The notes: generated by a model not told the origin, from the sequence alone. A stretch of 64,000 nt of DNA from an uncultured Acidobacteriota bacterium (GCA_963713825.1 CAVQNG010000001.1:64001-128000), one strand, 5' to 3'. Counted from the stretch's first letter, positions 26,546 through 60,323 are shown. Program-made: numbers and translations.

Positions 26546-28045
26546 CTACGGCGCCGTGCTGGACCAGGCCGAGGTGTCGCCGGACTCGAAGCCGTCGGCG
26601 AGAATCGGGATACGAAGGCTGAACGCATCGATGTGCTCGGGGTCGTTGGTGACTTCGATTCCTGCCGCCAGAATGGCGTTGGCCGAGTTGTCGAGGTATT
26701 CCCGAAAGTCGCTATTGGGATCCTCTGGATCAGCCTTGGGCCAAGAGGTGTATCCGTTGTCCCGGAAGGCCGGAATCAGGGTGTTTTCCGTCGCCCAAAG
26801 GTCGGCCGCAACGGGATCGATGCTGACGATCAGCTCGTCCCTACGGCTGGCTTCGCTGTAGTTCGTCGAAGGACCTCCGTTCGGATGGGCGTTGATCCAG
26901 ATGGCGTCGAGAATATTGAGGTCCGCGAGCTCGACTTCGCCGAGGTGAGCCCCGAGGAGGCCATATCTGATCGCGGCGTGGGAGTTCGTCCCGAGCTCGC
27001 GGGTCACTACACCCATGTAGTCCTTGACGTTGGCCGTCACGCCGTAGATGGAGTGGGACTTGAGCACCGGCAAATTGAGGAACTTGAGATGCTCGCGATC
27101 GTAGCCTTGAGTGACCGGGTCCCAGATCCCGTCTCGCAAGCTGATATAGGTGCCGAACGAGGTCTGGAACTTCGGATAGGAGACGGCCCCGTTGAGCTGA
27201 GCGTCCCAGGGATAGAGCACATATCCGTCTTCGAGATCGCTCGCCGAGAACTCATTGACCTGCGTATTACGGATCGAGGTCCAATCGAATAGAGAGACGT
27301 TATGGCCCAGATCCTGAAAATGGGACACAACGACACTCGGAGAAAGGGCCTGATCCTGAGCGTTGTTGTCGGCCCGATCGAAGTCCTCCACCGATGCGAA
27401 CTGAGCGTTCTCGCAAACGACGATCTCGCCTGTAAAGCCGGACGGGTGATCGACAATGCTTCGAATCACTCCTTGCAGCAGGTCGGTATTGGTTCCACCG
27501 CGTTCGGCCCATTGATAGTTGATCTTGATCACGATCACATCGTTGTCGGCGAGGACTCCGTCTGGGCCGGAGATCCGGGTGGTGGTCGGCGCTTTGTAGA
27601 ACTTGAGTCCCTGTCTACCCATGAGGTCGAGCATCGACTCGAAACAGGGAAATCGATCCCCGATCGGATCCTGCGGACAGCCGCTGACATGAAAGATCTC
27701 GGCTCGGTAGTCGGCCGGAGCCTGCAAAGAGGGTAGCCGTGGGCCTCTGGAGGCCTCCACTCGCGACAGATAGCCCCACGCACCGAATGTGGCGATGAGG
27801 CCGAACGCTGCAGCGGCAATCCCGACGATCGACTGCAGGCTTGCCAGCTTTCTTCGCAGCGCCAGGATCGCCGCGACCAACGGAGCTCCGAAAGCAAGCG
27901 TTGCTGTGGACACCGCAGCCTGTTGACAAGGGTAGGCCAGGCGGCTGGGACGCGACCCACTGCGCAGCAGGAGCCAACACAACGCGAAGACCCCCGCCAC
28001 GTACGCGTTCGCAACAAACCACCGATGGAGGAAGGATCGTCTCAT
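26546..28045 (-). CDS. DUF362-domain protein with C-terminal GFESGD tail
   Basis: RPSRLAYPCQQAA, IKINYQW, NLPVLKSH, GVTANVKDYMG, DPVAAD. Confidence 0.8.
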   Translation of the reverse strand: MRRSFLHRWFVANAYVAGVFALCWLLLRSGSRPSRLAYPCQQAAVSTATLAFGAPLVAAILALRRKLASLQSIVGIAAAAFGLIATFGAWGYLSRVEASRGPRLPSLQAPADYRAEIFHVSGCPQDPIGDRFPCFESMLDLMGRQGLKFYKAPTTTRISGPDGVLADNDVIVIKINYQWAERGGTNTDLLQGVIRSIVDHPSGFTGEIVVCENAQFASVEDFDRADNNAQDQALSPSVVVSHFQDLGHNVSLFDWTSIRNTQVNEFSASDLEDGYVLYPWDAQLNGAVSYPKFQTSFGTYISLRDGIWDPVTQGYDREHLKFLNLPVLKSHSIYGVTANVKDYMGVVTRELGTNSHAAIRYGLLGAHLGEVELADLNILDAIWINAHPNGGPSTNYSEASRRDELIVSIDPVAADLWATENTLIPAFRDNGYTSWPKADPEDPNSDFREYLDNSANAILAAGIEVTNDPEHIDAFSLRIPILADGFESGDTSAWSSTAP

Positions 28046-28202
28046 CGGCTCCTCCAGAAGCCAGCCGGCACCGGAGGGACTTGCCCACTCGGTGTTGATC
28101 AACCCAAGGGTAGGCTAGGTGCAACTCGAACACACCACCCGACGGGGTGGCCACGGTGCGGTGTGTCGAGGGCGAGCCTCGGCTCCTATTGGAGGGTGAG
28201 GA

Positions 28203-29150
28203 CTAGAATCTGCCACTCAGGCTGATTGCCAGGAGAGGCGCGCTGTCGTGGTCGACGGTTCGCCGCTGTTGGGCGTCCTCATTCTCGATTCTGAGCTCGC
28301 CATCGAGGATCAGACCGGTGTAGACGACGAGACTGAGCTTCGGGCTGAAGGTGTGCATGAGCCTGGCGAAGGTGACAATACCCCGTTGCTCGCCGATGCC
28401 GTTCGGCTCGAGATCTCGCTCGTCGAGTCGAAAACGGATGTTGCGGTAGGCGCCTCCAGCACCGAGCTCCCACTTGGGACCGATCTCGTAGGCCAGTTCG
28501 AGACCTGCGGGGCCCGTCGGTCCGACGGTCAGGGGATTCGTCAGACGCCACCGCTCTGTCAGCCGCCAATCGATGCTGATGAACGGGAACCCTCGCGTTT
28601 GTCCGATGCGATCGAAGACGCCGGCACCGAAGCCGAGCTTGCGATCGGGCTGAAACGCGTAGGTGGCGGCAAGCACCACGCCCCAAGTCACCGTGTCGCT
28701 GAAGGCGGCCCCCGATGCTCCGTACGATCCGATCGAGGGGCTGACGAGCATCGTCCACTTCTCGTTGGCTCTCCGGATGACGGGCAACGAGAGGTTGAGT
28801 CCGTGGACTCTGTCCCATGGGCTGGCCGATTCGAGGACGACATCGTCCGAGAACTCGTAGTCGTGGAGGTCATAGCTGACGCTCAGCCCCAGGATCGTCT
28901 TGCGGCTGATCGGTTGGGCGACGCTGGCTCGAACTAGCAGCGTTGAGACCGAGTAACTGCCTTGGGTGTCCAGGTCGGCATCGAACTGCTCCACAAGGGA
29001 GCCCGATAGGGACCAGAAGGGCCCGGGTGGCTTGCCCTCAGCTCCGGGGGTGGGCTGAGCCCCAACGGGGCTGGTCCAGATGACCAGCAGCAGGGGCAGT
29101 ATCCCGAGATGGATGATCCTCGCGGGCGACGTGATCTGGAGACTCGACAT
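28203..29150 (-). CDS. Outer-membrane beta-barrel protein (DUF6268-like)
   Basis: Signal peptide, beta strands, PFISIDWRL, terminal Phe (SLSGRF). Confidence 0.7.
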   Translation of the reverse strand: MSSLQITSPARIIHLGILPLLLVIWTSPVGAQPTPGAEGKPPGPFWSLSGSLVEQFDADLDTQGSYSVSTLLVRASVAQPISRKTILGLSVSYDLHDYEFSDDVVLESASPWDRVHGLNLSLPVIRRANEKWTMLVSPSIGSYGASGAAFSDTVTWGVVLAATYAFQPDRKLGFGAGVFDRIGQTRGFPFISIDWRLTERWRLTNPLTVGPTGPAGLELAYEIGPKWELGAGGAYRNIRFRLDERDLEPNGIGEQRGIVTFARLMHTFSPKLSLVVYTGLILDGELRIENEDAQQRRTVDHDSAPLLAISLSGRF

Positions 29151-29392
29151 GCGCGGTATTAGAAGGCAAAGCGACGGCGATAGCAAATAGCTCGCCGATT
29201 TCTCATTCTCATCGATGGCTCAGGTTCAGGGGTCATAGGGGCATGCAGACGAACTGGCTGACAGCAGGGGCAGCGGGATCGGTTCACATGCAACGTGGTT
29301 TACGCTTCCTAACCTGGAGGCCTTCCGATCGGCAGGGTCGCTAGGGGGCCAAGAGTACCGGGTCGAACTGTTGGCTGGGGGAAAAATGAACC

Positions 29393-29418
29393 GCTCGGGG
29401 CACCGAAGTGCCCCGAGC
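29393..29418 (-). terminator. Rho-independent terminator of the fasciclin gene
   Basis: 11-bp stem GCTCGGGGCAC-TTCG-GTGCCCCGAGC followed by a T-run on the minus strand. Confidence 0.8.
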
Positions 29419-29432
29419 AGGGGGAGGGAGGT

Positions 29433-29927
29433 CTACTCGGGGAGTAGAACAGTGTCGATCACGTGGATGACGCCATTGCTCGCCGTGATGTCCGCGGCGG
29501 TGACATTGGAACCATTGACTTTGACAGAGCCGTCCGCAACCACGAAGGCGACGTTCGAGCCTTGCACGGTCGCTGCGGAAGTGCCGTCGGTTACATCGAT
29601 CGCCATCACCTTACCGGGAACCACATGGTAGGTGAGAATTGCCTGGAGCTTGGCTAGGTTCTCGGGCTTCAGAAGGGACTCGACCGTCCCTGCGGGGAGT
29701 GCGGCAAAAGCCTCGTCCGTCGGAGCGAAAACCGTGAAGGGTCCTTCGCCTTTGAGAGTGTCAACGAGTCCGGCGGCCTGGACAGCTGCGACCAGAGTGT
29801 TGAAGTCACCTGCCGCGATAGCGGTGTCGACGATGTCCTGGTTCTTCTCGTGGTGCATTGCAAAAATCGGCATGACGGCCACGAGGGCGAGGAGCGTGAA
29901 GCAAGATACGAGTTTGGTAGAAGTCAT
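29433..29927 (-). CDS. Fasciclin (FAS1) domain protein
   Basis: [28 protein letters not shown]. Confidence 0.95.
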
Positions 29928-29980
29928 TTCAGCTTCCTTTCAGGTTTAACAGTTGAACTTTTAAAACATTCATAACGTGC

Positions 29981-30008
29981 ATTATAGCCGGGAAGCGAAA
30001 TTTGTCAA
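29981..30008 (-). promoter_or_regulatory. Consensus sigma70 promoter of the fasciclin gene
   Basis: TTGACA-16bp-TATAAT in an AT-rich context. Confidence 0.75.
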
Positions 30009-30155
30009 GTCTTTATATCTGGGAGTTTTTTGATCTAAGAAACATTCAAAGCGTTCGCATTTAGGAGACGCTCGCTGTCGCTGGAACAAACCCTTCGGCT
30101 GGCTTCGCGAATGGTGGTGAGGCCACCTGGGCGAAGGTCCCTTACCAAAATGCAG

Positions 30156-31397
30156 TCAGACCGTCTTGAGGTAGTCGCGGATCATGATGGCCGCCGCCGC
30201 TCCCTCGCCTGCGGCAGAGGCGACTTGCTTGGTGCTTTCCGCTCGCACGTCCCCGGCTGCGAATATGCCCGGCACGCTGGTCTCGAGGATTCGGGGCTCG
30301 GCGCGGTCGAAACCGGGAAGCGGATCGCTCCCATGCACCAGCGTGTGGCCGGTAATGATGAAGCCTTGGGGGTCGCGTCGAACCTCGGTGTCTTCAAGGA
30401 AGCCGGTGTTCGGATCGAGACCGATGAACACGAAGGCGCCAGGCAGCTCGAGCTCTTGGGTCTCGCCGCTCTCGACGTTGCGGATCTTGATCGTGTGCAA
30501 CTTGGATTGCGCGCCTGCAAAGCCTTCGACAACCGTATTGAAACGAACGTCGATCTTGGGATTGCTCAACACGCTCTCCTGAATGATCTGGCTTGCACTC
30601 AGTGCTTCTCCCCTGACGAGAAGAGTCACCCGATCGGCGAAGCGCGTCAGGAAGAGGCTCTCCTCGGCTGCGCTGTTGCCACCGCCGATGACGGCAACGG
30701 GGCGCCCCTTGTAGAAGGGGCCGTCGCAGGTGGCGCAGAAGTGGACTCCGGCACCGATGTACTCGTCCTCTCCTGGGATCTCGAGGCGTCGATAGTGACT
30801 TCCCATGGCGAGCAAAAGGGCTTGGGCACTGTAGATGCTACCGTCGGCTGTCTCGATGCAATGGTAGTTCTCATGGCTGTGAATACTCTCGACCTGCTGG
30901 GCTTGGAGCAGCTCGACTCCGAAGCGCTCAGCCTGGGCCCGCAGGCGCTGAGAGAGCTCGCTGCCGGCCACGCCTTCCGGGAATCCAGGCACGTTGTCGA
31001 GGTGCATCGTGGCCGCTGCCTGTCCGCCGATAGCGGCTCGTTCCACGACGAGGGTGTCGATGCCTTCCCTTGCCGTATAGAGGGCTGCCGTTAGCCCTGC
31101 TGGTCCGCCTCCGACGATGATCAGGTCGTAGTGGTGACGCTCGGCGATGGTCTTGAGGTCCAGCTTGGCGGCCAAATCGGCGTTGGATGGAACGGAGAGC
31201 ACCGAGCCATCGCCGAATGTAATGGTCGGGATGCGACGTTTGCCGGAGTTGGCTTCGATTACGAAATGCTCGCCAGCCTCGTCCTCTTCAATGTCAACCC
31301 AGCGGTAGGGAATCTGATGCTCGCCCAGAAACTGCTTGCTGCGGTGACAATCCGGACACCAAAAGGCGCCATAGACGGTAATCTGAGAATCGCTCAT
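30156..31397 (-). CDS. trxB: Thioredoxin reductase with N-terminal glutaredoxin-like domain
   Basis: WCPDC; GGGPAG; CATCDG; GGGNSA; TSVPGIFAAGD. Confidence 0.9.
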   Translation of the reverse strand: MSDSQITVYGAFWCPDCHRSKQFLGEHQIPYRWVDIEEDEAGEHFVIEANSGKRRIPTITFGDGSVLSVPSNADLAAKLDLKTIAERHHYDLIIVGGGPAGLTAALYTAREGIDTLVVERAAIGGQAAATMHLDNVPGFPEGVAGSELSQRLRAQAERFGVELLQAQQVESIHSHENYHCIETADGSIYSAQALLLAMGSHYRRLEIPGEDEYIGAGVHFCATCDGPFYKGRPVAVIGGGNSAAEESLFLTRFADRVTLLVRGEALSASQIIQESVLSNPKIDVRFNTVVEGFAGAQSKLHTIKIRNVESGETQELELPGAFVFIGLDPNTGFLEDTEVRRDPQGFIITGHTLVHGSDPLPGFDRAEPRILETSVPGIFAAGDVRAESTKQVASAAGEGAAAAIMIRDYLKTV

Positions 31398-31413
31398 CGA
31401 ACCCTCCAACTCG

Positions 31414-31650
31414 TTATCGAACAGCGGCGAGGATCAGTCTCGTTGCGGCCGCGACGGCCGCCGCTGCCGCAAGGGATACGACCCAGGACATTGGACGGCC
31501 AGTCAGAAAGACGAGGACCAACGCGACGAGAGGCGAGGTAAGGAGAGGAACCAGGGACTTCTCGGCTAGCGCCGTCCAACCGATCTGGGTCATCCCGATC
31601 TCTTCGAGTCCGGCCAAGCTGCCGGATTGGCAAGTGAGTGAGGCAGAGAG
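31414..31650 (-). pseudogene. Hydrophobic ORF, possibly a PiT phosphate-transporter fragment
   Basis: AGL..IG...IGWTAL....VPLLTSPLVALVL resembles a PiT segment; weak. Confidence 0.3.
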
Positions 31651-31739
31651 CTGATCCCTTACACCGATTTCGGCGTTAGCCAGTCTCAGGGGTCGAAGCT
31701 ACGCCGGGGGCCGGCGAAAAACTCAGAAGAGTCTGGTAG

Positions 31740-32009
31740 TCAGGCACTCGTCGCGAACCAGACAGCGGGTTCGCCTGCCACACCTGCCTGTTCCATGACT
31801 TCGCGCAGGCGGGCGGAACCCATGAACGCCTGTGCGGCCTCGAGCGTTTCGAAGTCGTGCCAGGCCGTAACATTGTTGGGGTCGTCGACCGATTGGAAGA
31901 CTGCATGGCCCTTGACGCCCATCCCAGCGCGTTCAGCGTCGAAATCGTCATAGGCCTGCTTCCACGTTGCGAAGTCGGTGACGGAGTGGCGAACAAACAT
32001 GCGAATCAT
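31740..32009 (-). CDS. Small ABM/dimeric alpha-beta barrel protein
   Basis: VRHSVTDFATWKQAYD...DDPNNV...AGVAGEP; RBS GGAGG. Confidence 0.8.
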   Translation of the reverse strand: MIRMFVRHSVTDFATWKQAYDDFDAERAGMGVKGHAVFQSVDDPNNVTAWHDFETLEAAQAFMGSARLREVMEQAGVAGEPAVWFATSA

Positions 32010-32223
32010 TGAAGCCTCCTTGGCGTTTTCGCGGAATCGCGACCGGATTCGAGCCGGCCGCATGACTCGGCACTGGTTTTCCGATCCCTCCAAGCTGTTG
32101 AGCTTTCGGCTCGGCGCATCCTAGCATCAGTCGTCGGGATTCCCCGCTTCGATACGCGCAGCACCTGTGGGAGAGTAGTCTGACTGTGGTGAGCTACATC
32201 AACCGGCCTGTGCGAGGTGCACC

Positions 32224-32412
32224 ATGAACAAGATTCCGTTCAACGTCGTCGAACGCAATGATCTGTCGCCTCTTTGCCCTCACTGTGGCAAGGAGTTGAC
32301 GGAGATCTATCGCAAGTCGAGAGGAGCAGGGTTGATTGTCGGGCGTAACAGCATCTTCTTCTGCCCGCACTGCAGAAAGGTCCTGGGATTCGGCCAGAGC
32401 CGGATGGCTTGA
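32224..32412 (+). CDS. Small zinc-ribbon protein
   Basis: Two CPHC motifs; RBS GAGG. Confidence 0.75.
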   Translation: MNKIPFNVVERNDLSPLCPHCGKELTEIYRKSRGAGLIVGRNSIFFCPHCRKVLGFGQSRMA

Positions 32413-32440
32413 GACAGTGGCCCGGCTCCCGGTTCCTGAA

Positions 32441-32878: not shown

Positions 32879-32927
32879 GGCTTCCTCCGTTTCCAGGATC
32901 GCTGCGGGAGTCGTAGCTCCGATTCAA

Positions 32928-33032
32928 ACCTTCGGTAGCTCGGCGGTCGTTGGAATCTCCGCGGGCAACGGAGGTGCCGATGATCCGTAGCTTTGTGTCC
33001 CCGGTCCGGCCAGGGTTACCTTTATCGAGGTA
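32928..33032 (-). ncRNA. c-di-GMP-I (GEMM) riboswitch
   Basis: ACCTCGATAAAGGTAACCCTGG...CCGGGGACACAAAGCTACGG...CCGCCGAGCTACCGAAGGT; P1 can close; lies in the 5' UTR of the NTF2-like gene. Confidence 0.72.
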
Positions 33033-40082: not shown

Positions 40083-41834
40083 ATGGCCGAACAGGCGGAT
40101 TCGCGACAGCACGAAGTAGATCGTCGAAACCTCATGAAGTCCTTGGGGCTGGGTGCCGCGGCAGCTGGCACGGGTGCTGTGGCCGTCCCAGAGGTGGCTG
40201 AATCAGCGGCCTTGGTGGGCCCAGCGATGCGGCGGGAGCGGGAGCCGGCTCGGCCGATGCCAGCGCTACCGGCCGCACCGCCGATATCGATCCTCGCCCT
40301 GAACCGGATGGGCTTCGGGCCGAGACCCGGTGACCGCGCCGCATTCAACGCGCTGGGTGGCACACCGGAAGACAGGCTGGCGGCTTACGTAGCTCAGCAG
40401 CTGGACCCTGACTCGATCGACGACAGCGATGTCGAAGCACGAATCGCCGCCGCCAACTACGACTCGGTGGATCTGAGCCCCGACCCCGACACTTACCTCC
40501 AGATCCTCTGGGCTTGGTACATCAACGACGACGGTGCGCCCGGCGGCCGCAACTCGACCGGCATCCCCCGGGATGAGCTGATCCGCGCGACCTTCATGCG
40601 CGCCATGTACTCCAAGCGGCAGCTGCTCGAGGTCATGACCGGCTTCTGGCACGACCATTTCAATGTCTATATCGACAGGTCGTCGTGGGTGCGGTCAACG
40701 ATGCCGCACCTGAATCTGCAACTCCGCACCAACGCCCTTGGCAATTTCAGGGCGATGTTGGAGAAAGTCGCCAAGAGCCCCTCCATGCTGCACTACCTGG
40801 ACAACTACACGAGCTCCAACGGTGGCCCCAACGAGAACTTCAGCCGCGAGCTGTTCGAGCTGCACACGCTCGGCTCCGAGAACTACTTGGGCGTGATGCC
40901 CCAGAACGAGGTGCCGAAAGACGGTGCCGGCCGGCCGGTGGGCTACGTTGACGCCGATGTCTTCGAGGCAACGCGGTGCTTTACGGGATGGTCTTTCTCC
41001 TTTGGAACGGAAGACGACGGCGACACGGGCCTGTTCTACTACCGGGCCGGTTGGCACGATCGGTTTCAGAAGTACGTACTCGGGAACTTCCTGCCGGCCG
41101 ACCAGCCGGACAAGAAGGACGGCCGTGACGTCTTGAACTTCCTCGCTTCGCATCCTGGCACGGGTCGGTACATCGCGCGCAAGCTCTGCCGCAGGTTCAT
41201 CGGCGACGATCCGCCGCAGAACGTTATCGATGCTGCTGCCGCAGTCTTCACCGCTCAATGGCAGGCAGCGGACCAGATCAAGCAGGTGCTGGAGGTCATT
41301 CTTCTGTCGGACGAGTTCAAGAACACCTGGGGCGAGAAGATCAAGCGGCCGTTCGAGATCGCGGTGAGCGCACTTCGGGCCGGCAACGCGAACATCACCC
41401 TGAAGATGGACCATTACGACACCAGCGACTTTCTCTGGCGCTACTACGGGACAGGCCAATGGCCCTACGGCTGGCCGGCTCCCGATGGCTACCCGGACGT
41501 TCGCGGTGCCTGGAAGAGCATGACGCCGCGCGTCATGAGCTGGCGGTTGTGTGGCTGGCTCGTCGACTGGGACAACGACTCCGGCAAGCACTACATCAAT
41601 GTCCTGGGTCAGACACCGACCTCATTGCGCTCGGCCACCGCACTGGCCGACTTCTGGATCGATCGAATCCTCGGCCGAGAGATGGAACCCGACGACCGTC
41701 AGGAAATCGTCGACTTCATGGCACAAGGCGTCAATCCGGACTTCGACCTCGATTTCAGCGACGAGGACACGACCGATCGATTGCGTTCGATGGTGGCGCT
41801 GATCTTCATGTCACCCGAGTTCCTGTGGCGGTAA
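40083..41834 (+). CDS. DUF1800 family protein (Tat signal)
   Basis: DRRNLMK; LNRMGFGPRPG, FWHDHF, YLDN, NENFSRELFELHTLG, KIKRP. Confidence 0.92.
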   Translation: MAEQADSRQHEVDRRNLMKSLGLGAAAAGTGAVAVPEVAESAALVGPAMRREREPARPMPALPAAPPISILALNRMGFGPRPGDRAAFNALGGTPEDRLAAYVAQQLDPDSIDDSDVEARIAAANYDSVDLSPDPDTYLQILWAWYINDDGAPGGRNSTGIPRDELIRATFMRAMYSKRQLLEVMTGFWHDHFNVYIDRSSWVRSTMPHLNLQLRTNALGNFRAMLEKVAKSPSMLHYLDNYTSSNGGPNENFSRELFELHTLGSENYLGVMPQNEVPKDGAGRPVGYVDADVFEATRCFTGWSFSFGTEDDGDTGLFYYRAGWHDRFQKYVLGNFLPADQPDKKDGRDVLNFLASHPGTGRYIARKLCRRFIGDDPPQNVIDAAAAVFTAQWQAADQIKQVLEVILLSDEFKNTWGEKIKRPFEIAVSALRAGNANITLKMDHYDTSDFLWRYYGTGQWPYGWPAPDGYPDVRGAWKSMTPRVMSWRLCGWLVDWDNDSGKHYINVLGQTPTSLRSATALADFWIDRILGREMEPDDRQEIVDFMAQGVNPDFDLDFSDEDTTDRLRSMVALIFMSPEFLWR

Positions 41835-41865
41835 CCAAGGCAGGCGGAGAGGAGCAAAAACCGGT

Positions 41866-43239
41866 ATGAGCACGACACGAAGAGGATTCATCACAGGCTG
41901 CTCCGCGGCTGTCGCGGCATACGCAGGCACTAGTTTCAACACCCTGGCATTCGGTGATCCCGGACACAACGAAGAGATCCTGGTAACGCTCTTTTTGCGC
42001 GGCGGGATCGATGGCCTCAACATGGTGATGCCGATAGCCGGCGCCGACCGCGGACACTATGTCTCGGCGCGGCCCAATATTGCGGTCCCCACCAGCGGTT
42101 CGAACGCGGCGCTGGCGCTCAACTCCCAGCTCGGTGTCCATCCGGCCGCCGGAACCGGACCGAGCGGCGCTCCCTCGACATTCTTCAATCTCTATCAGGA
42201 CGGCAAGGTGGTTTTCATCCCCGCCTGCGGCATGCACGAGGAGAACCGATCGCACTTCGACTCGATGAACTTCATGGAGCTTGGCACTCCGGGGACCTTG
42301 TCTACCGGCACGGGCTGGCTGACGCGACACCTGCAGTCCGCCAAGAACCTCCCTGGCGAGATCATCATGCCGGCCCTGGCCGCCGGTAATCTGCAGCAGA
42401 ACTCGCTGCGCGGCAGCATCGAAACGATCAACATGAGCGATCCGGACAGTTTCTCCCTAGAGGTGGGGCCCTGGGAGTGGAGGAGCGCTCAGAGAGTCGC
42501 ACTTCGACATCTCTACAACGGCACCAGCTGGTTGCATGAGTCGGGCATCGAGACGCTCGACGCCGTCGACATCATCGAGCTCAATGGTGGAAGTGGCGGC
42601 TACACCCCAGGGAACGGAGCTGTTTACCCAGGGGGCAATCTGGCGGAGCACCTCCAGACCGTGGCGCGCATGATCAAGCTCGATCTCGGGCTGCGAGTTG
42701 CGACCGTCGACTTCGGGGGTTGGGACACGCACAATGGACAGGGTGACGACGGCGGCGGTTACTTCTACGGCCATGCGGAGGAGCTGCTGAGCGCGTTGGC
42801 AGCCTTCTATACGGATCTGGACGGATCTGGCAGCTCGAACTACACGCAACGCTTGACCGTGGTTGTCATGAGTGAGTTCGGTCGCCGGCTGAGAGAGAAC
42901 GATGACCGGGGCACCGACCACGGGCATGGGAGCTTCGTTCTGGTGATGTCTGGCAACGCCCTCGGCGGGGTGAAGGGAACCTGGCCGGGTCTGGCCAACC
43001 ATCAGCTTTTCGACGGCGCCGATCTGGCGGTGACGACCGACTATCGACGCGTGTTGAGCGAGATCCTGATACGGCGATTGCAGAACACGAATCTTGGAGT
43101 AGTGTTCCCTGGCTATACCGACTACGAGCCCCTGGGAGTGGTGTCCGGTCCGGATCTCCCGCCGGTCTACGAGCCGCCGATCTTCGAGAGTGGGTTCGAG
43201 TCCGGTGACATGTCGGACTGGTCGACAGCGACCCCCTGA
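41866..43239 (+). CDS. DUF1501 family protein (Tat signal) with C-terminal GFESGD tail
   Basis: TRRGFI; FLRGGIDG, RSHFD, GWDTH, SEFGR, GTDHG. Confidence 0.92.
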   Translation: MSTTRRGFITGCSAAVAAYAGTSFNTLAFGDPGHNEEILVTLFLRGGIDGLNMVMPIAGADRGHYVSARPNIAVPTSGSNAALALNSQLGVHPAAGTGPSGAPSTFFNLYQDGKVVFIPACGMHEENRSHFDSMNFMELGTPGTLSTGTGWLTRHLQSAKNLPGEIIMPALAAGNLQQNSLRGSIETINMSDPDSFSLEVGPWEWRSAQRVALRHLYNGTSWLHESGIETLDAVDIIELNGGSGGYTPGNGAVYPGGNLAEHLQTVARMIKLDLGLRVATVDFGGWDTHNGQGDDGGGYFYGHAEELLSALAAFYTDLDGSGSSNYTQRLTVVVMSEFGRRLRENDDRGTDHGHGSFVLVMSGNALGGVKGTWPGLANHQLFDGADLAVTTDYRRVLSEILIRRLQNTNLGVVFPGYTDYEPLGVVSGPDLPPVYEPPIFESGFESGDMSDWSTATP

Positions 43240-47798: not shown

Positions 47799-48929
47799 CT
47801 ACTGCTGCGAGCTCGACCACGAGCTCGAGTCGCCTGACTCGAATCCGTCACTGAAGATCGCCTCTGCCGCCACATTGAAGAGATTCGGGCGATAGTGCTC
47901 GAGAGAACACCGCGTTCGCCGGGTTTGCTCGACGGAGAACTCTTCCATGCACAGGTCGTCGGTGTAGTCCATGTAGTTGTGGAAGGGATCCGAGGTGCTG
48001 CAACTGCTTGCACTCGCGGGGCAGCCGAAATTGGGGGATGCTTGCGGCAGCGTGTCACAGACGAGATCGCCATCGCTGTAGCAGCCCGGGGCGGTCTGAC
48101 TACCGCAGGAGCCCTGCGGATTGAAGGTGTGTTCCAGGCCGAGGTAGTGTCCGACTTCGTGAGTGGCCGTCCGGCCCTGATCGTAGGGTACAGCGTCCGC
48201 ATCGCGGCCGAACGCCGACCAGAGAATGACCACACGGTCAAACAACTCACCCACCAAGGCTCCTCCAGAGTCAGCCGGCAGGAAAGGAACATAGCCGAGG
48301 GCACCGCTAGCAGTGTTCGTGTAGATGTTCATATACCGATTGGGATCCCATGCGAGGGTATTCCAGTAATTGCCGCCATCGTTGTAGTAGGTGGTGTTGC
48401 AGGTACGTGTAATGCCGTTGGTCGGCTGACCGGTCGGCGTCTCGTCGGCGAGCCTGAATTGAACCTGGGCATCGGTTCCTAAAGACCCATTGCTGCCGGC
48501 GAGGGCGAGGAAGTCTTCATTCAGGATGTCGATCTGACTCTGCACCATGGCATCGGAAATGACGCCGTTGGTGCAGGAGTTGTCCATCAAGATGTGCACG
48601 ACCACTGAGATCTCGAGCAAAGACCCCGGGGCGTAGTCAGTCGTGGGATTTGTCGAGCTCGAAGAACAATCTGAAGGCACCGGGGCACTGGTCGATCCGA
48701 AGAGCATTTCCCGCATTTCTCGGTCAGGGGTCCCACACCGGAGTCCATTGGCTCGGAAGTACTCGGACTGGACATAGGCCGACCAACTATCGAAGGTCAG
48801 GCCCTCGATCGTGATTGGCTGATCGCCTCTTGTGGAGCTTGCTGCGCCAGCAGCACTCGGCATTTGTAGAGCCAGGGCCAGAGCAAACATGGCAGCGGCT
48901 ACGGTCGGCGATGATTTGTGGTCTCTCAT
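47799..48929 (-). CDS. Secreted M43 (pappalysin/ulilysin-like) zinc metalloprotease with GFESGD tail
   Basis: RCGT prodomain, HEVGHYLGLEH, NYMDY. Confidence 0.9.
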   Translation of the reverse strand: MRDHKSSPTVAAAMFALALALQMPSAAGAASSTRGDQPITIEGLTFDSWSAYVQSEYFRANGLRCGTPDREMREMLFGSTSAPVPSDCSSSSTNPTTDYAPGSLLEISVVVHILMDNSCTNGVISDAMVQSQIDILNEDFLALAGSNGSLGTDAQVQFRLADETPTGQPTNGITRTCNTTYYNDGGNYWNTLAWDPNRYMNIYTNTASGALGYVPFLPADSGGALVGELFDRVVILWSAFGRDADAVPYDQGRTATHEVGHYLGLEHTFNPQGSCGSQTAPGCYSDGDLVCDTLPQASPNFGCPASASSCSTSDPFHNYMDYTDDLCMEEFSVEQTRRTRCSLEHYRPNLFNVAAEAIFSDGFESGDSSSWSSSQQ

Positions 48930-49087
48930 TCTCAATGTACAGGCTCCTGTTGCTCTAGTTTGTGTTCTTGCCAGGCGACAGATCCCTCACCTCTCGGCGA
49001 GCGCACAGCACTGCGGGCGCTGCGGGGCTGCACAGCCTACTATCCGAGAAACCGGCATGCAAGGGACTTGCGACAGCCCGTTCGGCG

Positions 49088-53729: not shown

Positions 53730-53945
53730 GGTTCTCACCCTCACGACAGAGGTCAGCGGTCCTGAGTCCAGCCGAAAGTGTACCTTCTACGGCCTGTTCG
53801 ATGGCAGTCGCCTCAGCCTCGAGGTCGAGACTGTGACGCATGAGCATTGCCGCGCTCAAGATGGCACCGATTGGATTGGCCGTGCCGTTGCCCGCGACAT
53901 CGGGCGCCGAGCCGTGCACCGGCTCGAAGAGGCCATTCTGGTTTC
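53680..53945 (-). pseudogene. leuB: 3-isopropylmalate dehydrogenase C-terminal fragment
   Basis: [15 protein letters not shown]...[18 protein letters not shown]...RTADL; the N-terminal ~three quarters is missing. Confidence 0.85.
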
Positions 53946-53954
53946 CCCCCTGTC

Positions 53955-54630
53955 TCATGCCGAAACGGACTGGAGCTGCGGCACCGGCTTCATCCATCCG
54001 TGACGGTCTTCGATCGCACCGCTGGTGATGCCGAAGAACTCCTCCTGCAGTCGCTGTGTAACGGGCCCTCGCACTGCATCACCGACCGGAATCCGATCGA
54101 CAGATCGCACCGGGGTGATCTCCGCTGCCGTGCCGGTCATGAAGAGCTCGTCACAGAGATAGAGCATGTCGCGGGTTACGATCTCCTCCCGCACGTCGAG
54201 TCCGAGGTCTGCAGCCAAACGGATGGTGGTGTTGCGTGTTATGCCGGCGAGGATCGAAGAGCCGAGGGGGGGAGTGATGATCGCGCCGTCGATGACCAGG
54301 AACAGATTCTCGCCTGCCCCCTCACTGACCACGCCGTTGTGATCCAACATGATTCCTTCCTGGAAACCGTTGCTCTGGGCTTCGACGGAGACCAGTTGGT
54401 TGCTGATGTACTGCCCCCCGATCTTGCCGCGCGGCATCGCTGAGCCTGGCGGTAGCCGTCGCCAGGAGCTGACCCCAGCGTCGATTCCCTTCTCGATAGC
54501 TTCGGCACCCAGGTATCGCCCCCACTCGAAAGACAAGATGGTCACGACGACATCACACTGCAGGGGATTCAGACCCATGGCCCCAACGTTCCTGAAGGCC
54601 AGAGGCCGTATGTAGCAGGAGGCTAAGCAA
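53955..54630 (-). pseudogene. ilvE: Branched-chain aminotransferase, 5'-truncated
   Basis: YIRP, KIGGQY, EGAGENLF, LAGITR, GTAAEITP; the first ~85 residues are absent. Confidence 0.85.
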
Positions 54631-54792
54631 AGCGAGAAGCGTCGCGGGCACACTGACTAGGGACCTCGAGGCGAAGGTTGGCAGGACAGCGGCGTAGGCA
54701 GCCTTTCGGCTGGTCTTCAGCATGTTGGGCGGACTGCACGCAAGGTGAGCGATCGAAGTCAAGCGTCAGTCGGCCAGACGTGACTCGGCCCC

Positions 54793-54820
54793 AAGAGGCG
54801 ACCCGGGAGGATCGCCTCTT
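54793..54820. other. Inverted repeat AAGAGGCGA-N10-TCGCCTCTT
   Basis: 9-bp stem upstream of the ilvE remnant. Confidence 0.4.
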
Positions 54821-55181
54821 CGAGCTGATGCTGAAACTCTAGGCTAGAGGGTCTTCGACCTCACACTCCTATTTGGACCTGGATTTCATCCTGGGGGACT
54901 TCTCTACCGGAGCAGCGCCGAAGAGATTCAAGCACTTCCCTGCAGAGGACCAACCTGAATAAGTGGGAAGTGATCCAGTTTCATGGCAAGGCAACGCTCA
55001 TCCTTCGGGTCGATCCGAGCTCGAGGGATCTCGACCATGAGGCAGCTCTTGGAGAACTGGTGGGTGTCTGGCGGCGACCTTGGGTTCGTGATCCCCTTGG
55101 AGGCCCCGTGAACACAACACAACCCCAGGCGGCAGATAGTTGCTGCTGCCACCTGGGGCCGGAAGAAACGGTGAACTAGCG

Positions 55182-55214
55182 TTGTTGATCGTCACCCACG
55201 ATGACGATCAACAA
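55182..55214 (-). terminator. 13-bp inverted repeat after the secreted hypothetical gene
   Basis: TTGTTGATCGTCA-N7-TGACGATCAACAA; terminator or operator. Confidence 0.5.
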
Positions 55215-55222
55215 GAGACTCA

Positions 55223-55768
55223 CTATTTGACCTTGGTCTTGAACCCGGTCGGTGCATTCGCTGGTCTGGCTACCCAGAAGTCAAAGCAGGTCGTGGTCAT
55301 CTGAATCATCGTCCAGCTGTCGTTCAGTCTGCCAAACTGCGTATACCGGTTGAAGGAGGTCATGCTGCAGGAGGCGTTGCCAAAGGGCTCGCCGATAAAG
55401 GTCCAAGAGGCTGTCCCCTGCGTTTCGCAGGTACCGTGGAAATCAGTTCTCGAGACCGGAAAGCCGCCGGGGAACCAGTTTCGGATGTTGCCTGCGTAGA
55501 TGCTGTCTCCAACGAAGTCTGCGAATCCTGTGGGCGGATCAGGGATCAGTGCATCGACAGGGGCGCCAAACCACTTTCCACTCGTGCCGCTGAGGAGGGC
55601 ATTGGCCTTGCCATTCTTGATGAAGTCAAAACAGTCGATCAGGTTTCCACCGAGGTCATACACCGTGTAAGACCTGGGGCCAGGTTGGACGGCGTTTGCC
55701 GGTGCCGCGGCCATGACGCCGACCAGGACGATCAGCAGGGAAACGACTACACTCGCTCTCATGCTCAT
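55223..55768 (-). CDS. Secreted hypothetical protein (4 Cys)
   Basis: RBS AAGGAG; signal peptide ending ANA. Confidence 0.7.
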   Translation of the reverse strand: MSMRASVVVSLLIVLVGVMAAAPANAVQPGPRSYTVYDLGGNLIDCFDFIKNGKANALLSGTSGKWFGAPVDALIPDPPTGFADFVGDSIYAGNIRNWFPGGFPVSRTDFHGTCETQGTASWTFIGEPFGNASCSMTSFNRYTQFGRLNDSWTMIQMTTTCFDFWVARPANAPTGFKTKVK

Positions 55769-56051
55769 AAGCGTCTCCTTTTTAGAAGTGGCTGTAAATC
55801 TTCAACCCAAAAATACTGCTTCCCTCACTTCCCTGTCAAGGGGTTCGGCAGCGAATTCTTGGTGGCTATGGATTGCCTGGGTTGCATGGAAGATCGCCCC
55901 GAACTGCATCTTGCCGCCGGTCTCGCGACTACCGGCGGCACATCAATGCCAGTGGGCAGCGCCGGAGTTGCCAAAGTGCCAAAGTCGGACTAACCTAGGC
56001 GATCGGCAGATTCCACTGATATCTGCTCCGAGGAGACGAGGACTCGTTGGC

Positions 56052-56936
56052 ATGCTGAGATTCAGAGCTTTGGGATTGCTGTTGAGCGGCGTCCTGTTCG
56101 CGATTGCACCAGTCCCGGGATTTGCCCAGACGCGTGGCTTGGAAAGCGATGCGAAAGCACTTCGCATTCGGCAGGAGATCACCGACTCGAGAATCTCACC
56201 GCCGACCACAGAGGTGATGATCACGACTCTGGGGAGAGGTGCTTTTCGAGTCGATACCGAGCTCGACGCCGAGGGTGGGCCCGCGGTTAGCTCCATCTTC
56301 CGAGTGGATAAAGATAGCTTTCTCATTCTCTTCCACGACACCCAAGAGGCCGCGATTCAAGACAGGGAGCTGCTCAGAGTCGTTGCCGAGCGGCGACAGG
56401 CTCTCGAGGAGCGACTCGAGGAGCGTCTGGCTGAGGATCCCACCGGCGAGGCTGCCGCACACGCCAGGATGCTCGAACTGCGGAAGGAAACAGCGCGGCT
56501 CGAAGCCGAGCAGAACCATGAGGGCAAAAAAGTCGGCAGGCGATTCGAGAAGACCTCGGAAAGCGGTGAGCTCCTGGGATACCCGTGGAACAAGTATCGA
56601 CAAGTCCGGGACGGTTTGCTGGTGCAGGAGCTCTTGGTCACGCCGTGGGCGGACCTCGGCATTGGAGATGAAGTAGTGCTGGTTTTCGAGAGGTTGTCCC
56701 GTTTCGCCGAGGATTCCTTGGAGATTGCCGGCGGAGCCAGTCGAATGGAGAACCCCTACGAGCCGTACTTGGAGCTCGGAGGTTTTCCCCTCGTCATTCG
56801 CTATTTCAACCCTCAAGGCGAGTCGATTGCGGAGACTCGGGCGGTCTCTATCGAAACTGTTATGGGGAACGGCATCTTCGAGAACCCCGGATATCCCGAG
56901 AAGGGAATGGCCGAAGACCTGACCGAGCTCGAGTGA
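56052..56936 (+). CDS. Exported hypothetical protein (DUF4412-like)
   Basis: Signal peptide; ...LGYPWNKY...ELLVTPW...GGFPL...FENPGY. Confidence 0.6.
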   Translation: MLRFRALGLLLSGVLFAIAPVPGFAQTRGLESDAKALRIRQEITDSRISPPTTEVMITTLGRGAFRVDTELDAEGGPAVSSIFRVDKDSFLILFHDTQEAAIQDRELLRVVAERRQALEERLEERLAEDPTGEAAAHARMLELRKETARLEAEQNHEGKKVGRRFEKTSESGELLGYPWNKYRQVRDGLLVQELLVTPWADLGIGDEVVLVFERLSRFAEDSLEIAGGASRMENPYEPYLELGGFPLVIRYFNPQGESIAETRAVSIETVMGNGIFENPGYPEKGMAEDLTELE

Positions 56937-57017
56937 AGTCGGCCGCCGGCAATCGTTCTTTGAAGTCCAACCCTGTCGGATGCGTGTAGAGTCTTAACAG
57001 TCAGGAGTGTCGTCACC

Positions 57018-58247
57018 ATGAAGCTTGAAAGTCTTGTTGCCTTTGCCCTGGCCATCGGGATTTGCCTGCACGGAACGTCAGAGGCTCAAGTAGGACTATG
57101 TGATCATTTCTGGTGTGATGGGGTGGACTATGCAGTGGGCAGCTTTCCCTCCGGTGTCGCGGCAGCGGACTTCGATGGCGACCGTCGCGTCGATCTCGCT
57201 GTGACCAGCGAGTCGCCCGACAAGGTCGGCGTGCTTCGCAATGTCGGCAACGGAAGATTCGCCGCACCTGTGAACGTTTCACTGGCCGGTGGCAGCGGTC
57301 CGCACTCCGTTGCGGCAGCCGATTTCGACGACGACGGCGACGTCGATCTCGTGGTCACTCGTCACAACGAGAACGATGTGCAGTTGCTGATCAACACCGC
57401 CGGGGCCTTTTCCTTGGGTGCGATCACCAGTGTCGGTGGGACCGATCCGAGGCAGGTCGTGACGGGAGACCTCGATGGCAACGGCTTCATGGATGTCGTC
57501 ACGGTGAATCGAGGTTCGGACAGCATCTCGGTGCTGCTCAACTCGGGCGGTGTGCTAGTAGCGGCGGTGACCTATCCTGTCGGCGCCGACCCCAGGAGTC
57601 TGGCGATCGGCTATTTGGACAACGACGCCGACCTCGATCTGGCAGTCGCCAGTCATAGTGACCGAGAGGTCGAGCTGTACCTCAATGCTGGCTCGGGGGC
57701 CTTGGTAGCAGGCTCGAGTCTCTTCGTGGGCGCTAGCCTCCGACCAGAGGGAGTCGCGATCGGCGATCTGGACGCCGATGGCGACAGTGACATCGCCAGC
57801 AGCACCACGGCGTCGGTCGGTGGTTTTGTGAGCGTATTCCTGAATTCGGGCTTTGCAACATTCGGCGCGCCAGTCCACCACGATTCGGATGCAACCGATC
57901 CCTCGGCCATCGTGATTGCGGATTTCGACCTGGCGCTGGGCAACGACATCGCCGTCCTTAACGGAGAATCTCAGAACATATTCACCGGTGATCCCGAGTG
58001 GAAAGTGGCGGTTCTGAGCAATCTCGGTGCGGCAGACTTTGGCAGTCCGCGGCTCCCCGAAGTAGGAGCATCTCCGGCGGCTCTGGTGGCTGCCGACCTC
58101 TTCACAAACGGAGCCCCCGATCTGGTCAGCGCCAACCAAGACGAAGGCACCCTCTCGATCTTGAAGAACAGCAATGTGATCCTGGCGAGTGGTTTCGAGT
58201 GGGGAGACACCTTTCCCTGGTCGGGGACCGTTCCCGAGCTTCCCTAG
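57018..58247 (+). CDS. Secreted FG-GAP/VCBS repeat beta-propeller with GFE(W)GD tail
   Basis: Seven DxDGDxxxDLxV-type repeats; signal peptide. Confidence 0.9.
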   Translation: MKLESLVAFALAIGICLHGTSEAQVGLCDHFWCDGVDYAVGSFPSGVAAADFDGDRRVDLAVTSESPDKVGVLRNVGNGRFAAPVNVSLAGGSGPHSVAAADFDDDGDVDLVVTRHNENDVQLLINTAGAFSLGAITSVGGTDPRQVVTGDLDGNGFMDVVTVNRGSDSISVLLNSGGVLVAAVTYPVGADPRSLAIGYLDNDADLDLAVASHSDREVELYLNAGSGALVAGSSLFVGASLRPEGVAIGDLDADGDSDIASSTTASVGGFVSVFLNSGFATFGAPVHHDSDATDPSAIVIADFDLALGNDIAVLNGESQNIFTGDPEWKVAVLSNLGAADFGSPRLPEVGASPAALVAADLFTNGAPDLVSANQDEGTLSILKNSNVILASGFEWGDTFPWSGTVPELP

Positions 58248-58832
58248 CGGAGGCGGCCGAAAGAGGGTTCGAGCTCCTGCCTGGCCCAATGTTCCTTCGC
58301 TCCCAAAGACGGTAGGACTCCGACTAAGAGGGGCCTTTCACCAGCAGGCCGATGGCCTTCAACTGCTCAGTGTCTTGTTCCAGGGGGCAGGTTGAGCAGC
58401 AAGGCTGCCCCACTATTGGCAGGAGTCGAACGGGCCGACTCAGGTGTGCGATCTCAGTTTCCGATCTGTCCGTGGAGGTCCAGGGCAGAAGAGACCAGGT
58501 CGACATTTTCCACGGCGTTGTCCTTTGCGGCGCGGCCCCCAGGACCCTACTCCCAGATGACATAGGCGAAACTACTTTCGGGCGCTGCGGCCACCCTCAG
58601 AATCCTGGCTATCCCGAGAAATGGCTAGCCGACAAGGTGAGGGTGATCGAGAAGCGGAGCTTGACCTGTTTGCGGTCGGATCTGGAGAAAAAACGAGCGC
58701 CGAACGGCACAGAAAGGAGAAGAAGCCGCCCGGCGCTCATGACCTCTTATCGAGGTACGGACGTAGAGTAGCCGGGTTGCAAGAGCCCGAGAATTGCCTC
58801 TGGCGCCAGGATTCTGGCCCTCCGCGCCAGGA

Positions 58833-60323
58833 TCAGGGCACGGTGGCGGTCCAGGCAGACGTGCCGCCCGACTCGAACCCGTCGCTGAACATGCTCGTGC
58901 CGACCAGGATGCCGACCTGGAATCCTGTCGCCGTCTGGCTTTCGACCTCGATGGCGATCTCGGCGGCTGGATCTACGAACAGCTCTCCCACCCTCCACAT
59001 GACGCCTTCAGTGCTGGCATAGTCCGCTGGAGGATCATCTTCATCTACCACCCAGGCCGGCTCCGACCGCCCGGTGTTGACCTCGTGGATGATGACCATC
59101 CGGTCGCCAGCGCCCGAGCCCGGAATCTCGGCCTCGTAGTTGCCGACAGCTTCCCGCACCTCCACTGTGTAGTAGTGGCTGTTGCTGCCGTTGATGGGAA
59201 TCTTGGCCGTTCGATAGGTGGCTGTCGTGGCGCTACCCAGCGGATCGATGGTCACCCTGAAGAAGCCCTCGCCGGGCACCACGTACTTCTCGCTTTCCTC
59301 CAGCCAGCCGAGCCGGTCCTTGTGGTAAGAGGTCACGTGCTTGCCGAGGTTGCCGTAGACGGGGTCGTCCACGGCATAGCCGGTGGCCGAGCTCATGACG
59401 TCCCAGGGACTGTCGTAAGGGTTCGAGTCGCCATCCGAGTTGTTGGCGTGCGGCAAGCCGAAGCCGTGTCCCATCTCATGGGCGATGACGCCTTCCTGTG
59501 CGAACGCCCAGGGCGGATCCCAGGTCGTCCGCCAGCTCTTGCTGACGCCGTCCAGGGTGGCATAGCGGCCACCGCCCCAGGCACAGCAGTCGAGTCGGTC
59601 GTTGAACATGAGATTGATGCCCTCGAAGCCCCCACTGCCGCCCAGCGAGAAGTCGATGAACGGGTCTGCCGCGGCAGTGCAGTCGTTGAAGAGCTGGCTC
59701 AGGTTGGCGCCGGTGCCGCTTCCCGGGGTCGGAACATAGAAAGTGTGCGTGTTGGGTAGGTTCTTCCAGTTCACCGCCGTACTGCCGACGATATCGATGG
59801 CGTCGTAGGAGACTTCCCTCCAGTAGTGGTCGAGGCGTCCCGGCGCATTGGCATACATGCCCTGGAAGTAGCTCAGGTTTTCGGGCTCCGCCCCCTTGTC
59901 CGAGAACTTGCAGGCCAGAGTCACCCATGGCTTGGATCCCAGAACCGCTTCTGTGGAGCTCGACTCGAGGCCTCTTGGTGAAGGCAGAATGCGCAAATTC
60001 GTGGCGCGACGTCGGCCAGATCGAGGATTGCCGTCCTCGACAGTGACCTCTACAAACCGACGGTTGATGGCCATGACTCCTCCGGCCTCGGTCAGAGTGG
60101 TGCCGTCGATCACGACTTCGGAGACTTGGCCGCTCGCATCCGCAAGGAAGAACTTGAGGTGCGCAGGACCATGAATATCTGGCCCAGGATCGCCCCAGAC
60201 AACGTCGAGCCTGCCGGTCAGTGTCGCGGCCGAGAGTGGCACGGACACAACAGTAGCCAGCACGACGAAGCAGACCAGAAACGCCGCGTCGAAGGCTGTC
60301 GAAGAACGAGAGACTCTGGACAT
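58833..60323 (-). CDS. Secreted metzincin peptidase (M6/M11-like) with GFESG tail
   Basis: YWREVSY, HEMGHGFGLPH, WDVMS Met-turn, YHKDRLGW. Confidence 0.85.
   Translation of the reverse strand: MSRVSRSSTAFDAAFLVCFVVLATVVSVPLSAATLTGRLDVVWGDPGPDIHGPAHLKFFLADASGQVSEVVIDGTTLTEAGGVMAINRRFVEVTVEDGNPRSGRRRATNLRILPSPRGLESSSTEAVLGSKPWVTLACKFSDKGAEPENLSYFQGMYANAPGRLDHYWREVSYDAIDIVGSTAVNWKNLPNTHTFYVPTPGSGTGANLSQLFNDCTAAADPFIDFSLGGSGGFEGINLMFNDRLDCCAWGGGRYATLDGVSKSWRTTWDPPWAFAQEGVIAHEMGHGFGLPHANNSDGDSNPYDSPWDVMSSATGYAVDDPVYGNLGKHVTSYHKDRLGWLEESEKYVVPGEGFFRVTIDPLGSATTATYRTAKIPINGSNSHYYTVEVREAVGNYEAEIPGSGAGDRMVIIHEVNTGRSEPAWVVDEDDPPADYASTEGVMWRVGELFVDPAAEIAIEVESQTATGFQVGILVGTSMFSDGFESGGTSAWTATVP

Follow-up and report, generated by a model that had tools for sequence, protein, structure and literature searches.

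A terminal tail shared by diverse exported proteins of an uncultured Acidobacteriota bacterium: a candidate docking tag for a secreted jelly-roll protein that lacks its first strand

Five exported proteins of one genomic window end in the same tail

The subject of this report is a short tail at the ends of exported proteins, encountered in a 64,000-nucleotide stretch of DNA (the window; positions 64001–128000 of contig C1) from the genome of an uncultured Acidobacteriota bacterium (G000; 5.42 Mb in 38 contigs, GC content about 61%). A reading of the window made from the sequence alone had noted that five proteins of unrelated fold share a conserved C-terminal tail of about 19 residues, and it had proposed that this tail is a recognition signal for outer-membrane translocation or surface attachment. 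Every one of the five tails is indeed present, with the endings as quoted there; the positions were right, except that each span took in the stop codon. The domains that had been assigned to the five proteins (DUF362, DUF1501 with a Tat signal, M43, FG-GAP and M6-like) were borne out by matches to Pfam and NCBIfam.

Gene A (26546..28102, minus strand) encodes a DUF362-family protein (PF04015, E = 2.4e-10) with a hydrophobic N-terminus. Its tail, ILADGFESGDTSAWSSTAP, occupies 26549–26605 without the stop codon, reaches the stop, and scores 42.9 bits against the tail hidden Markov model (HMM) described below. Gene B (41866..43239, plus strand) encodes a DUF1501 protein (PF07394, E = 2.3e-22) whose N-terminal twin-arginine translocation (Tat) signal scores 17.5 bits against TIGR01409 (cut-off 16.7); the tail IFESGFESGDMSDWSTATP (43180–43236 without the stop codon; 35.7 bits) again reaches the stop. 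Its upstream partner is a DUF1800 gene (40083–41831, plus strand; E = 3.9e-103). In this DUF1800–DUF1501 pair (40083–43239, plus strand), the Tat-exported DUF1501 member thus bears the tag as well. The product of gene C (47799..48935, minus strand) is an M43-like zinc metalloprotease with a signal peptide (PF05572, E = 2.3e-12), and its tail, IFSDGFESGDSSSWSSSQQ, lies at 47802–47858 without the stop codon and extends to the stop (37.8 bits).

Gene D (57018..58247, plus strand) specifies an FG-GAP propeller with a signal peptide (PF13517, FG-GAP_3, E = 6e-37); it carries a variant tag of 22 residues, ILASGFEWGDTFPWSGTVP followed by ELP (58179–58244), which matches the model with 26.8 bits and ends three residues before the stop. 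Gene E (58833..60437, minus strand; likely start at the ATG at 60323) encodes an M6-like metalloprotease (TIGR03296, E = 3.8e-19, below the curated cut-off), with the tail MFSDGFESGGTSAWTATVP at 58836–58892 without the stop codon (38.9 bits), flush with the stop.

The tail recurs throughout the genome and is kept as a peptide

The tail HMM was built from 49 open reading frames (ORFs) in exact register, ending GFE.G....W.....-stop. Among the 62,380 six-frame ORFs of G000 with at least 50 residues, 77 match this model at an independent E-value of at most 0.01, a count far above chance expectation. The consensus reads [hydrophobic]-F-x-D-G-F-E-S-G-D-x-x-x-W-S-x-x-V-[P/Q/E]. Two pairs of ORFs on small and large contigs have identical C-terminal sequences (C24:463–1590 and window 57018–58247; C38:10914–12200 and C14:89819–91105). 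They probably represent assembly redundancy or recent duplication, and the tail count is therefore inflated by about two.

In ORFs of at least 100 residues there are 71 matches: 56 are flush with the stop codon, 12 lie one to six residues before it, and three are located elsewhere. The placement at the extreme C-terminus that the sequence-only reading had described thus holds for 68 of 71 matches (at most six residues from the stop) but not strictly, as there are N-terminal and internal copies. In four G000 proteins, the motif comes immediately behind the signal peptide and precedes a Pro-rich linker; an RHS-repeat protein (C35:14156–18979, plus strand) has one internal motif between RHS repeats, 272 residues before its end. 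These five copies comprise the three matches located elsewhere and two weaker matches.

Using a lenient home-made rule, signal-peptide-like N-termini were found in 54 of 61 tail ORFs, compared to 1343 of 3001 control ORFs; a strict home-made rule yielded 37 of 61 and 495 of 3001, respectively. The enrichment for signal peptides, which had been suggested as a check that the tag marks exported proteins, is therefore seen under both rules. Outside the window, 34 of 68 tail ORFs have a Pfam match at E ≤ 1e-5. The families represented include FG-GAP, CarboxypepD_reg arrays, MtrC-like multihaem cytochromes, beta-helix, M36, M23, trypsin-like, GDSL lipases, reprolysin-like, LamG, Calx-beta, C-type lectin, RCC1 and RHS. 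The idea of one recognition tag shared by diverse exported proteins holds.

Between tail copies, the DNA is 64% identical and the peptide 62% identical, while the 40 bases past the stop are only 27% identical. Because the tail is kept while the sequence past the stop diverges, selection evidently acts on the peptide and not on a DNA repeat. Two other origins were considered and rejected: a DNA repeat or mobile cassette, because the copies differ in their codons and have no common sequence downstream, and read-through of the stop into a domain beyond it, because each of the three stop codons occurs and the DNA that follows is not conserved. As a separate observation, the TAG stop is far commoner in tail-bearing genes (37 of 59, e.g. 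26546–26548 and 47799–47801) than in other long ORFs (1084 of 2996).

The end of the tag differs between genomes. Many tags of the genomes G005 and G276 end at the conserved Trp or one to two residues past it, compared to five residues past it in G000; no clear pattern of co-variation between tail endings and the ends of the partner protein described below was found among 20 tails of G005 and G276.

The tail has no existing model in the curated libraries, which was one of the points that the sequence-only reading had left to be checked. With whole window proteins, no model matched the tail (NCBIfam at E ≤ 1, Pfam at E ≤ 0.1). When the 30-residue tails were searched against Pfam and NCBIfam at E ≤ 10, four of the five matched no family; for the fifth, the only match was to a cytochrome-reductase subunit family of Pfam (E = 0.2), which is unrelated. 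A full-text literature search with motif strings found no description of the tail.

By homology, the tail is the first strand of a jelly roll

A profile of 51 tails was searched against a library of 1.84 billion proteins (E ≤ 0.001). It matched 8464 clusters, many of which are full domains. Among 149 of the 150 matches listed, 55 are single-copy proteins, many of them short metagenomic fragments, and the motif is located at most three residues from the C-terminus in 50 of the 55. The other 94 listed proteins are multi-copy, with spacings that cluster at 17–27, about 190–225 and about 280–300 residues. Where the spacing is long, the motif opens each repeated beta-rich domain (a repeat of about 190–290 residues). 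Among these 94 proteins there are 21 spacings of 17–27 residues, which correspond to free-standing tags in tandem. P0010, P0030, P0021 and other library proteins carry two to three such free-standing copies, about 20–25 residues apart; one S8 peptidase has two tandem tags in its N-terminal region (residues 142–196), and its peptidase domain begins at about residue 558.

What is the domain that the motif opens? Its sequence aligns to positions 2–41 of CBM_4_9 (PF02018) and to positions 4–24 of NTTRR-F1 (NF033675), both below cut-off. The sole family match that passes its cut-off is that of the library protein P0024 to Polysacc_lyase (PF14099; 31.9 bits, cut-off 29.9). P0024 consists of two full domains, and AlphaFold2 predicted its structure from a 22-row alignment with a mean predicted local distance difference test (pLDDT) score of 91.5. 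In this model, the motif forms a strand (residues 6–10 and 230–234), a loop and a short strand that together open each domain. A PDB sequence search with P0024 returned nothing significant (best E = 0.7). On the strength of these sequence comparisons and of the P0024 model, we conclude that the tail and the strand–loop–short strand unit with which a concanavalin A (ConA)-like jelly roll begins are homologous.

The sequence-only reading had stated that descent of the tail from a known domain, truncated to its first strand, would count against its proposal. As homology, this origin is literally what was found. It does not refute the proposal, however: because the tail is conserved, stands in a fixed register and is paired, genome by genome, with a strand-less remainder of the same domain, the homology is instead the likely mechanism.

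A single secreted protein comprises the domain without its first strand

When G000 was searched with an HMM built for the complete "type 2" domain, a single ORF (C25:782647–783345, outside the window) matched across the body of the domain, covering profile positions 24–203 of 214 (E = 1e-11). The gene in this ORF (C25:782692–783345) encodes 218 residues, composed of a signal peptide and a jelly roll; we refer to this strand-less jelly-roll protein as the body protein (BP). The signal peptide ends in ...AMASA, the mature chain begins where the motif would end, and the protein stops directly past the last strand. This architecture recurs in all relatives examined, namely in seven genomic orthologues and in 27 database proteins of 201–238 residues, all of which are unnamed and lack a Pfam domain. 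All 28 aligned members have a signal peptide, a conserved mature N-terminus and no motif. When seven mature BPs were aligned with four fused domains (see below), the BPs began one residue past the motif of 22–23 residues. In donor-strand systems, the fold of the receptor lacks one strand that is present in its intact homologues, and such is the constitution of the BP.

The G000 BP has no Pfam match at E ≤ 0.001. According to Foldseek searches of the PDB, the body has the fold of the PL7, PL20 and PL36 polysaccharide lyases (alginate and glucuronan lyases) and of lectin-like jelly rolls (E about 2–4e-7, TMq 0.5–0.71). A search for BP loci with 14 closer rows found three loci only, all in Thermoanaerobaculia or in metagenome-assembled genomes of Acidobacteriota. 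BP-like clusters labelled Pseudomonadota are present in the ESM Atlas, and related pairs of tag and body may exist in other phyla.

Short contigs that lie inside the BP ORF were found in four metatranscriptome libraries from four studies (three identical, one about 94% identical); they are a hint of BP expression, as such contigs do not demonstrate transcription. A scan of the surroundings of the gene found no promoter-like sites and two terminator-like sites (1.1 expected), neither of them 3' of the gene.

The neighbours of the BP gene in G000 are three Peptidase_S74-ended paralogues, genes of sulfatase type, and a group of glycosyltransferase genes (GT2 and GT4) clustered with an ABC-2 exporter. 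The three paralogues (520–611 residues, each ending in Peptidase_S74) stand in tandem upstream of the BP gene (L041:3862–9428, plus strand); this intramolecular-chaperone end is typical of trimeric fibre or spike proteins. A sulfatase-family gene adjoins the BP gene in four genomes (G000, G165, G433 and G401; loci L041, L043, L044 and L046), which may be due to chance.

Tail and BP co-occur, are fused and adjoin each other

Both profiles were applied to one class sample of 101 genomes. Tail and BP were found together in 14 genomes, the tail alone in one, the BP alone in none, and neither in 86. The sole tail-only genome (G256) has a single match (E = 5e-5). The distribution is patchy within families yet concordant: two of three genomes are positive in family f1, two of 14 in f4, and five of nine in f11. 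The number of tails per positive genome ranges from one to at least 81. In all ten genomes with at least 19 tails, there is one BP locus each, except for G440, which has three matching stretches. In a phylum sample of 401 genomes, of which the best seven candidates per genome were scored, nine of ten body-positive genomes were also tail-positive. Profiling across genomes, which the sequence-only reading had recommended as a route to the machinery, thus arrived at the small, secreted, lectin-like BP as the only strictly co-occurring partner found.

Gene fusions connect the two parts directly. In the genome G131, motif and body form one C-terminal domain on large secreted GSDH-like enzymes and on FG-GAP proteins. 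The G000 orthologue of these GSDH-like enzymes (39–46% identity) bears the short tail exactly where the fused domain starts. For the fused FG-GAP protein, too, the G000 proteins that match best carry the tail, gene D of the window among them. Separate genes may also lie side by side: the only motif gene of G282 is directly upstream of the strand-less BP gene, its stop overlapping the BP start codon, and G131 has a tail gene 32 nt upstream of a gene for a signal peptide plus body. In G130, the fused domain is interrupted by a frameshift.

Other fusions bear on where the BP might be held. The BP of G276 continues into SLH domains (PF00395, E = 2.3e-11), and that of G436 is 41% identical to it, SLH part included. 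SLH domains bind cell-wall polymers. Because the BP is fused to SLH domains in two lineages, attachment to the surface or envelope is favoured; for outer-membrane translocation, the other half of what the sequence-only reading had proposed, no machinery turned up.

A modelled complex places the tail in a conserved groove of the BP

The sequence-only reading had suggested that the tail be co-folded with candidate partners. The mature BP (27-row alignment) and a 30-residue tail (51-row alignment) were modelled as a complex, which scored 0.61 (three runs: 0.35, 0.76 and 0.61), compared to 0.00 for the best of three controls. Of 157 solved complexes, 116 attain a score of 0.61, as do two of 215 mismatched pairs. 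Contact agreement between the runs was at least 98%, and the pLDDT of the partner was at least 64. In the model, residues 12–15 of the tail pair with BP residues 214–217, antiparallel to the last strand, and residues 25–28 (Trp-Ser-Ser-Thr) pair with BP residues 61–65. The pLDDT of the BP itself was 87–93 with the tail and 73–77 with unrelated peptides.

The predicted interface can be compared with the conservation of the BP family. Its 35 BP residues have a conservation of 0.71, as opposed to 0.54 for the other 160 (Mann–Whitney p = 7e-6). Seven of the eight invariant BP columns fall in the modelled groove, as do 12 of the 20 most conserved positions (3.6 expected). No part of the BP is more strongly conserved than the modelled groove. 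Physical binding of the tail by the BP is predicted by this one structure model.

A proposed mechanism and its alternatives

Considering the observed distribution of the tag, its homology to a first strand, the strand-less BP family, and the co-occurrence, fusion and neighbourhood of the two, we judge it rather probable that the tail is a donor-strand docking tag: it would complete the BP in trans after export and so tie many exoproteins to one adaptor. The client proteins would be exported via Sec or Tat, and the BP would be exported as well. The free hairpin at the end of a client, mostly the C-terminus and sometimes the mature N-terminus, would then enter the open groove of the BP, pair with its last strand (Y214–T217) and with the strand V61–H65, and complete the fold in trans. 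About 80 clients of different kinds (enzymes, propellers, cytochromes and proteins resembling adhesins) would thereby be tied to one common adaptor. This adaptor would be fixed in the envelope, in some lineages by fused SLH domains; in G000, it would presumably be held by the lectin-like face of the completed domain on an envelope glycan. We infer both the site of docking and its purpose, be it retention or display.

Taken one step further, the system could be a natural tag-and-catcher: one strand-deficient secreted BP would capture about 80 tagged exoproteins (proteases, lipases, multihaem cytochromes and propellers) and so arrange a coat of enzymes on the cell envelope of Acidobacteriota from sediment, with SLH-anchored catchers as scaffolds. 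We consider this fuller picture to be evenly poised between right and wrong.

Several observations weigh against a docking tag. One concerns the model: tail and BP are the halves of a split domain, and the modelling program knows intact jelly rolls, so the passing score shows that the two fit rather than that they bind in the cell. Nor does the body necessarily require the strand. AlphaFold2 left the motif of a fused G131 domain unplaced (11-row alignment, four rows with the motif), with a pLDDT below 50 at residues 1–18 and the body folded; because this model from a shallow alignment folded the body only, the body may be stable without the strand. The many tails of G005 and G276 that end at the Trp or just past it lack the second strand of the modelled hairpin.

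The numbers and relatedness of the partners raise further doubts. One BP gene would need to serve about 80 client genes. The G000 BP has no recognisable anchor, and a protein-database homologue search found no fused or anchored BP among longer proteins, although this is weak evidence. Between the G000 BP and that of G119, a genome of the same genus, the identity amounts to only about 23%, an unexpected divergence for a shared receptor. A query with a single BP missed the tail-rich genomes G119, G005 and G276, all three of which were found by a five-row profile. In the phylum sample, 15 genomes had one to four motif matches and no body match among the best seven candidates per genome. Finally, the two-by-two tables overstate the support, because related genomes are not independent.

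Of the explanations that compete with docking, a secretion or sorting signal for an outer-membrane translocation machine survives best; the BP would then be a periplasmic targeting factor or chaperone until hand-over, or would be unrelated. Such a signal would account for a tag on exported proteins of many folds, mainly at the extreme C-terminus. A Tat substrate bears the tag too, so the tag must be read after export, in keeping with this view. A soluble BP with a signal peptide and without an anchor, as in G000, would suit a periplasmic carrier, and the co-occurrence fits a carrier as well as an anchor. SLH-fused BPs, however, resemble fixed anchors and not shuttles. The motif also serves as the first strand of a domain and occurs at mature N-termini and in tandem, all of which would be unusual for such signals, and no translocon candidate lies beside the BP or tail genes (secretion-system families were not profiled across genomes). 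We therefore think a translocation signal unlikely.

Somewhat less likely still is that the free hairpin is an autonomous unit that binds an envelope polymer or Ca2+-bridged glycans, comparable to the short units of choline-binding or GW-type repeats, and that the BP is simply a further lectin of the same lineage, which does not touch the tail. The conserved acidic and aromatic residues (D15, E18, D21 and W25) and the free-standing copies in tandem, 17–27 residues apart, in proteins of other organisms would agree with this. A single hairpin of 19 residues would probably not fold or bind alone, however, and the start of the BP exactly at the end of the motif (28 of 28 members) would be left unexplained, as would the concordant patchy distribution, the G282 operon and the conserved groove.

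Very improbable is a third alternative, in which the tail is the leftover stub of a repeatedly lost C-terminal lectin domain, a neutral or merely stabilising end: orthologues do have the full domain at the same position, and tail lengths past the Trp are ragged in some genomes, but about 56 independent genes hold the same register to the stop with residues conserved despite synonymous divergence, each of ten genomes has from 35 to at least 81 tails, N-terminal copies are present, and a stub would not be expected to co-vary with a separate strand-less body gene as is observed. What probability remains is left for explanations other than these four.

If the tail is indeed a docking tag, it would constitute a new principle of bacterial sorting: a part of the receptor's own fold would act as address label, carried by a large share of the secretome and recognised by a single small protein. 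An ending that thousands of metagenomic proteins bear without annotation would be explained, and the tag would provide a handle to predict which enzymes of uncultured Acidobacteriota stay bound to the surface and which are released. Protein display, too, could make use of a natural pair of peptide and receptor that is genetically compact.

Other features of the window

Two features of the window stand apart from the tagged genes. At 32931–33030 (minus strand), a cyclic di-GMP-I riboswitch aptamer (RF01051; 41.6 bits, gathering score 35) lies upstream of small ORFs without a Pfam family. At the left end (374–3022, minus strand), a RepA_C plasmid replication protein, a ParE toxin and a HepT/nucleotidyltransferase toxin–antitoxin pair are found together; this cluster is possibly an integrated plasmid or mobile remnant.

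Comparison with known systems

One terminal signature on unrelated exported proteins, together with a dedicated single-copy partner gene, is a pattern that the tail shares with PEP-CTERM/exosortase, LPXTG/sortase, GlyGly-CTERM/rhombosortase, MYXO-CTERM and the C-terminal domain (CTD) of the type IX secretion system (T9SS). The likeness ends there. As the sequence-only reading had rightly emphasized, the tail has neither the transmembrane helix nor the basic end of the PEP-CTERM type of signal (past the motif there are only five polar residues, ending in P, Q or E, and no hydrophobic stretch), and its candidate reader is neither a protease nor a transpeptidase. The T9SS CTD (TIGR04183/PF18962) is a folded C-terminal beta-sandwich of roughly 70–100 residues, whereas the tag has only 19–22. 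No T9SS CTD or sorting model was among the matches of the five window proteins and 68 other tail ORFs. Unlike all of these signals, the tag can also stand N-terminally or form the first strand of an entire domain.

In SpyTag/SpyCatcher, a CnaB2 domain was split by engineering, and its parts are locked by an isopeptide bond. There, too, a short strand peptide and a strand-less remainder rebuild a fold in trans; the split described here is natural and conserved across genomes, and there is no sign of a covalent bond.

The cohesin–dockerin system resembles the proposed one in its logic. Many secreted cellulosomal enzymes bear one small terminal module, and scaffoldins are anchored by SLH domains; likewise, one terminal module would here be directed to one receptor, and the BPs of G276 and G436 are receptor–SLH fusions. 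A dockerin, however, is a folded Ca-binding module of about 70 residues with a duplicated loop-helix segment of about 22 residues, and it binds the surface of an intact cohesin. The tag has 19 residues and would join the fold of its receptor, the tails of G000 are single copies, and the host phylum differs. The dockerin family (PF00404) had no match in the window proteins, the 30-residue tails or the 68 other tail ORFs.

A mechanistic parallel is donor-strand complementation. In chaperone–usher and type V pili, an open-grooved beta-sandwich is completed by a donor strand of another polypeptide; the BP likewise lacks its first strand, and the tail is modelled in that place. The fold is different, as pilins are immunoglobulin-like and the BP is a ConA-like jelly roll. 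So are the donors: the place of pilin subunits is taken by about 80 enzymes and binding proteins that are unrelated to one another. No polymer is evident, and the outcome would be docking rather than fibre assembly. No chaperone or usher is among the annotated neighbours of the BP or tail genes, and no genome-wide search for these families was made.

The nearest relatives by descent are the ConA-like modules (PF14099, PF02018 and NF033675). The motif aligns to their first 20–40 positions or so, and the body has their fold; tag and BP thus belong to the ConA-like jelly-roll superfamily by homology. The family matches are weak, and neither a free-standing tag nor a stand-alone strand-less form is described in these families. 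The combination of tag and strand-less partner is undescribed in the libraries and literature that we searched, and it probably represents a docking tag of a new kind.

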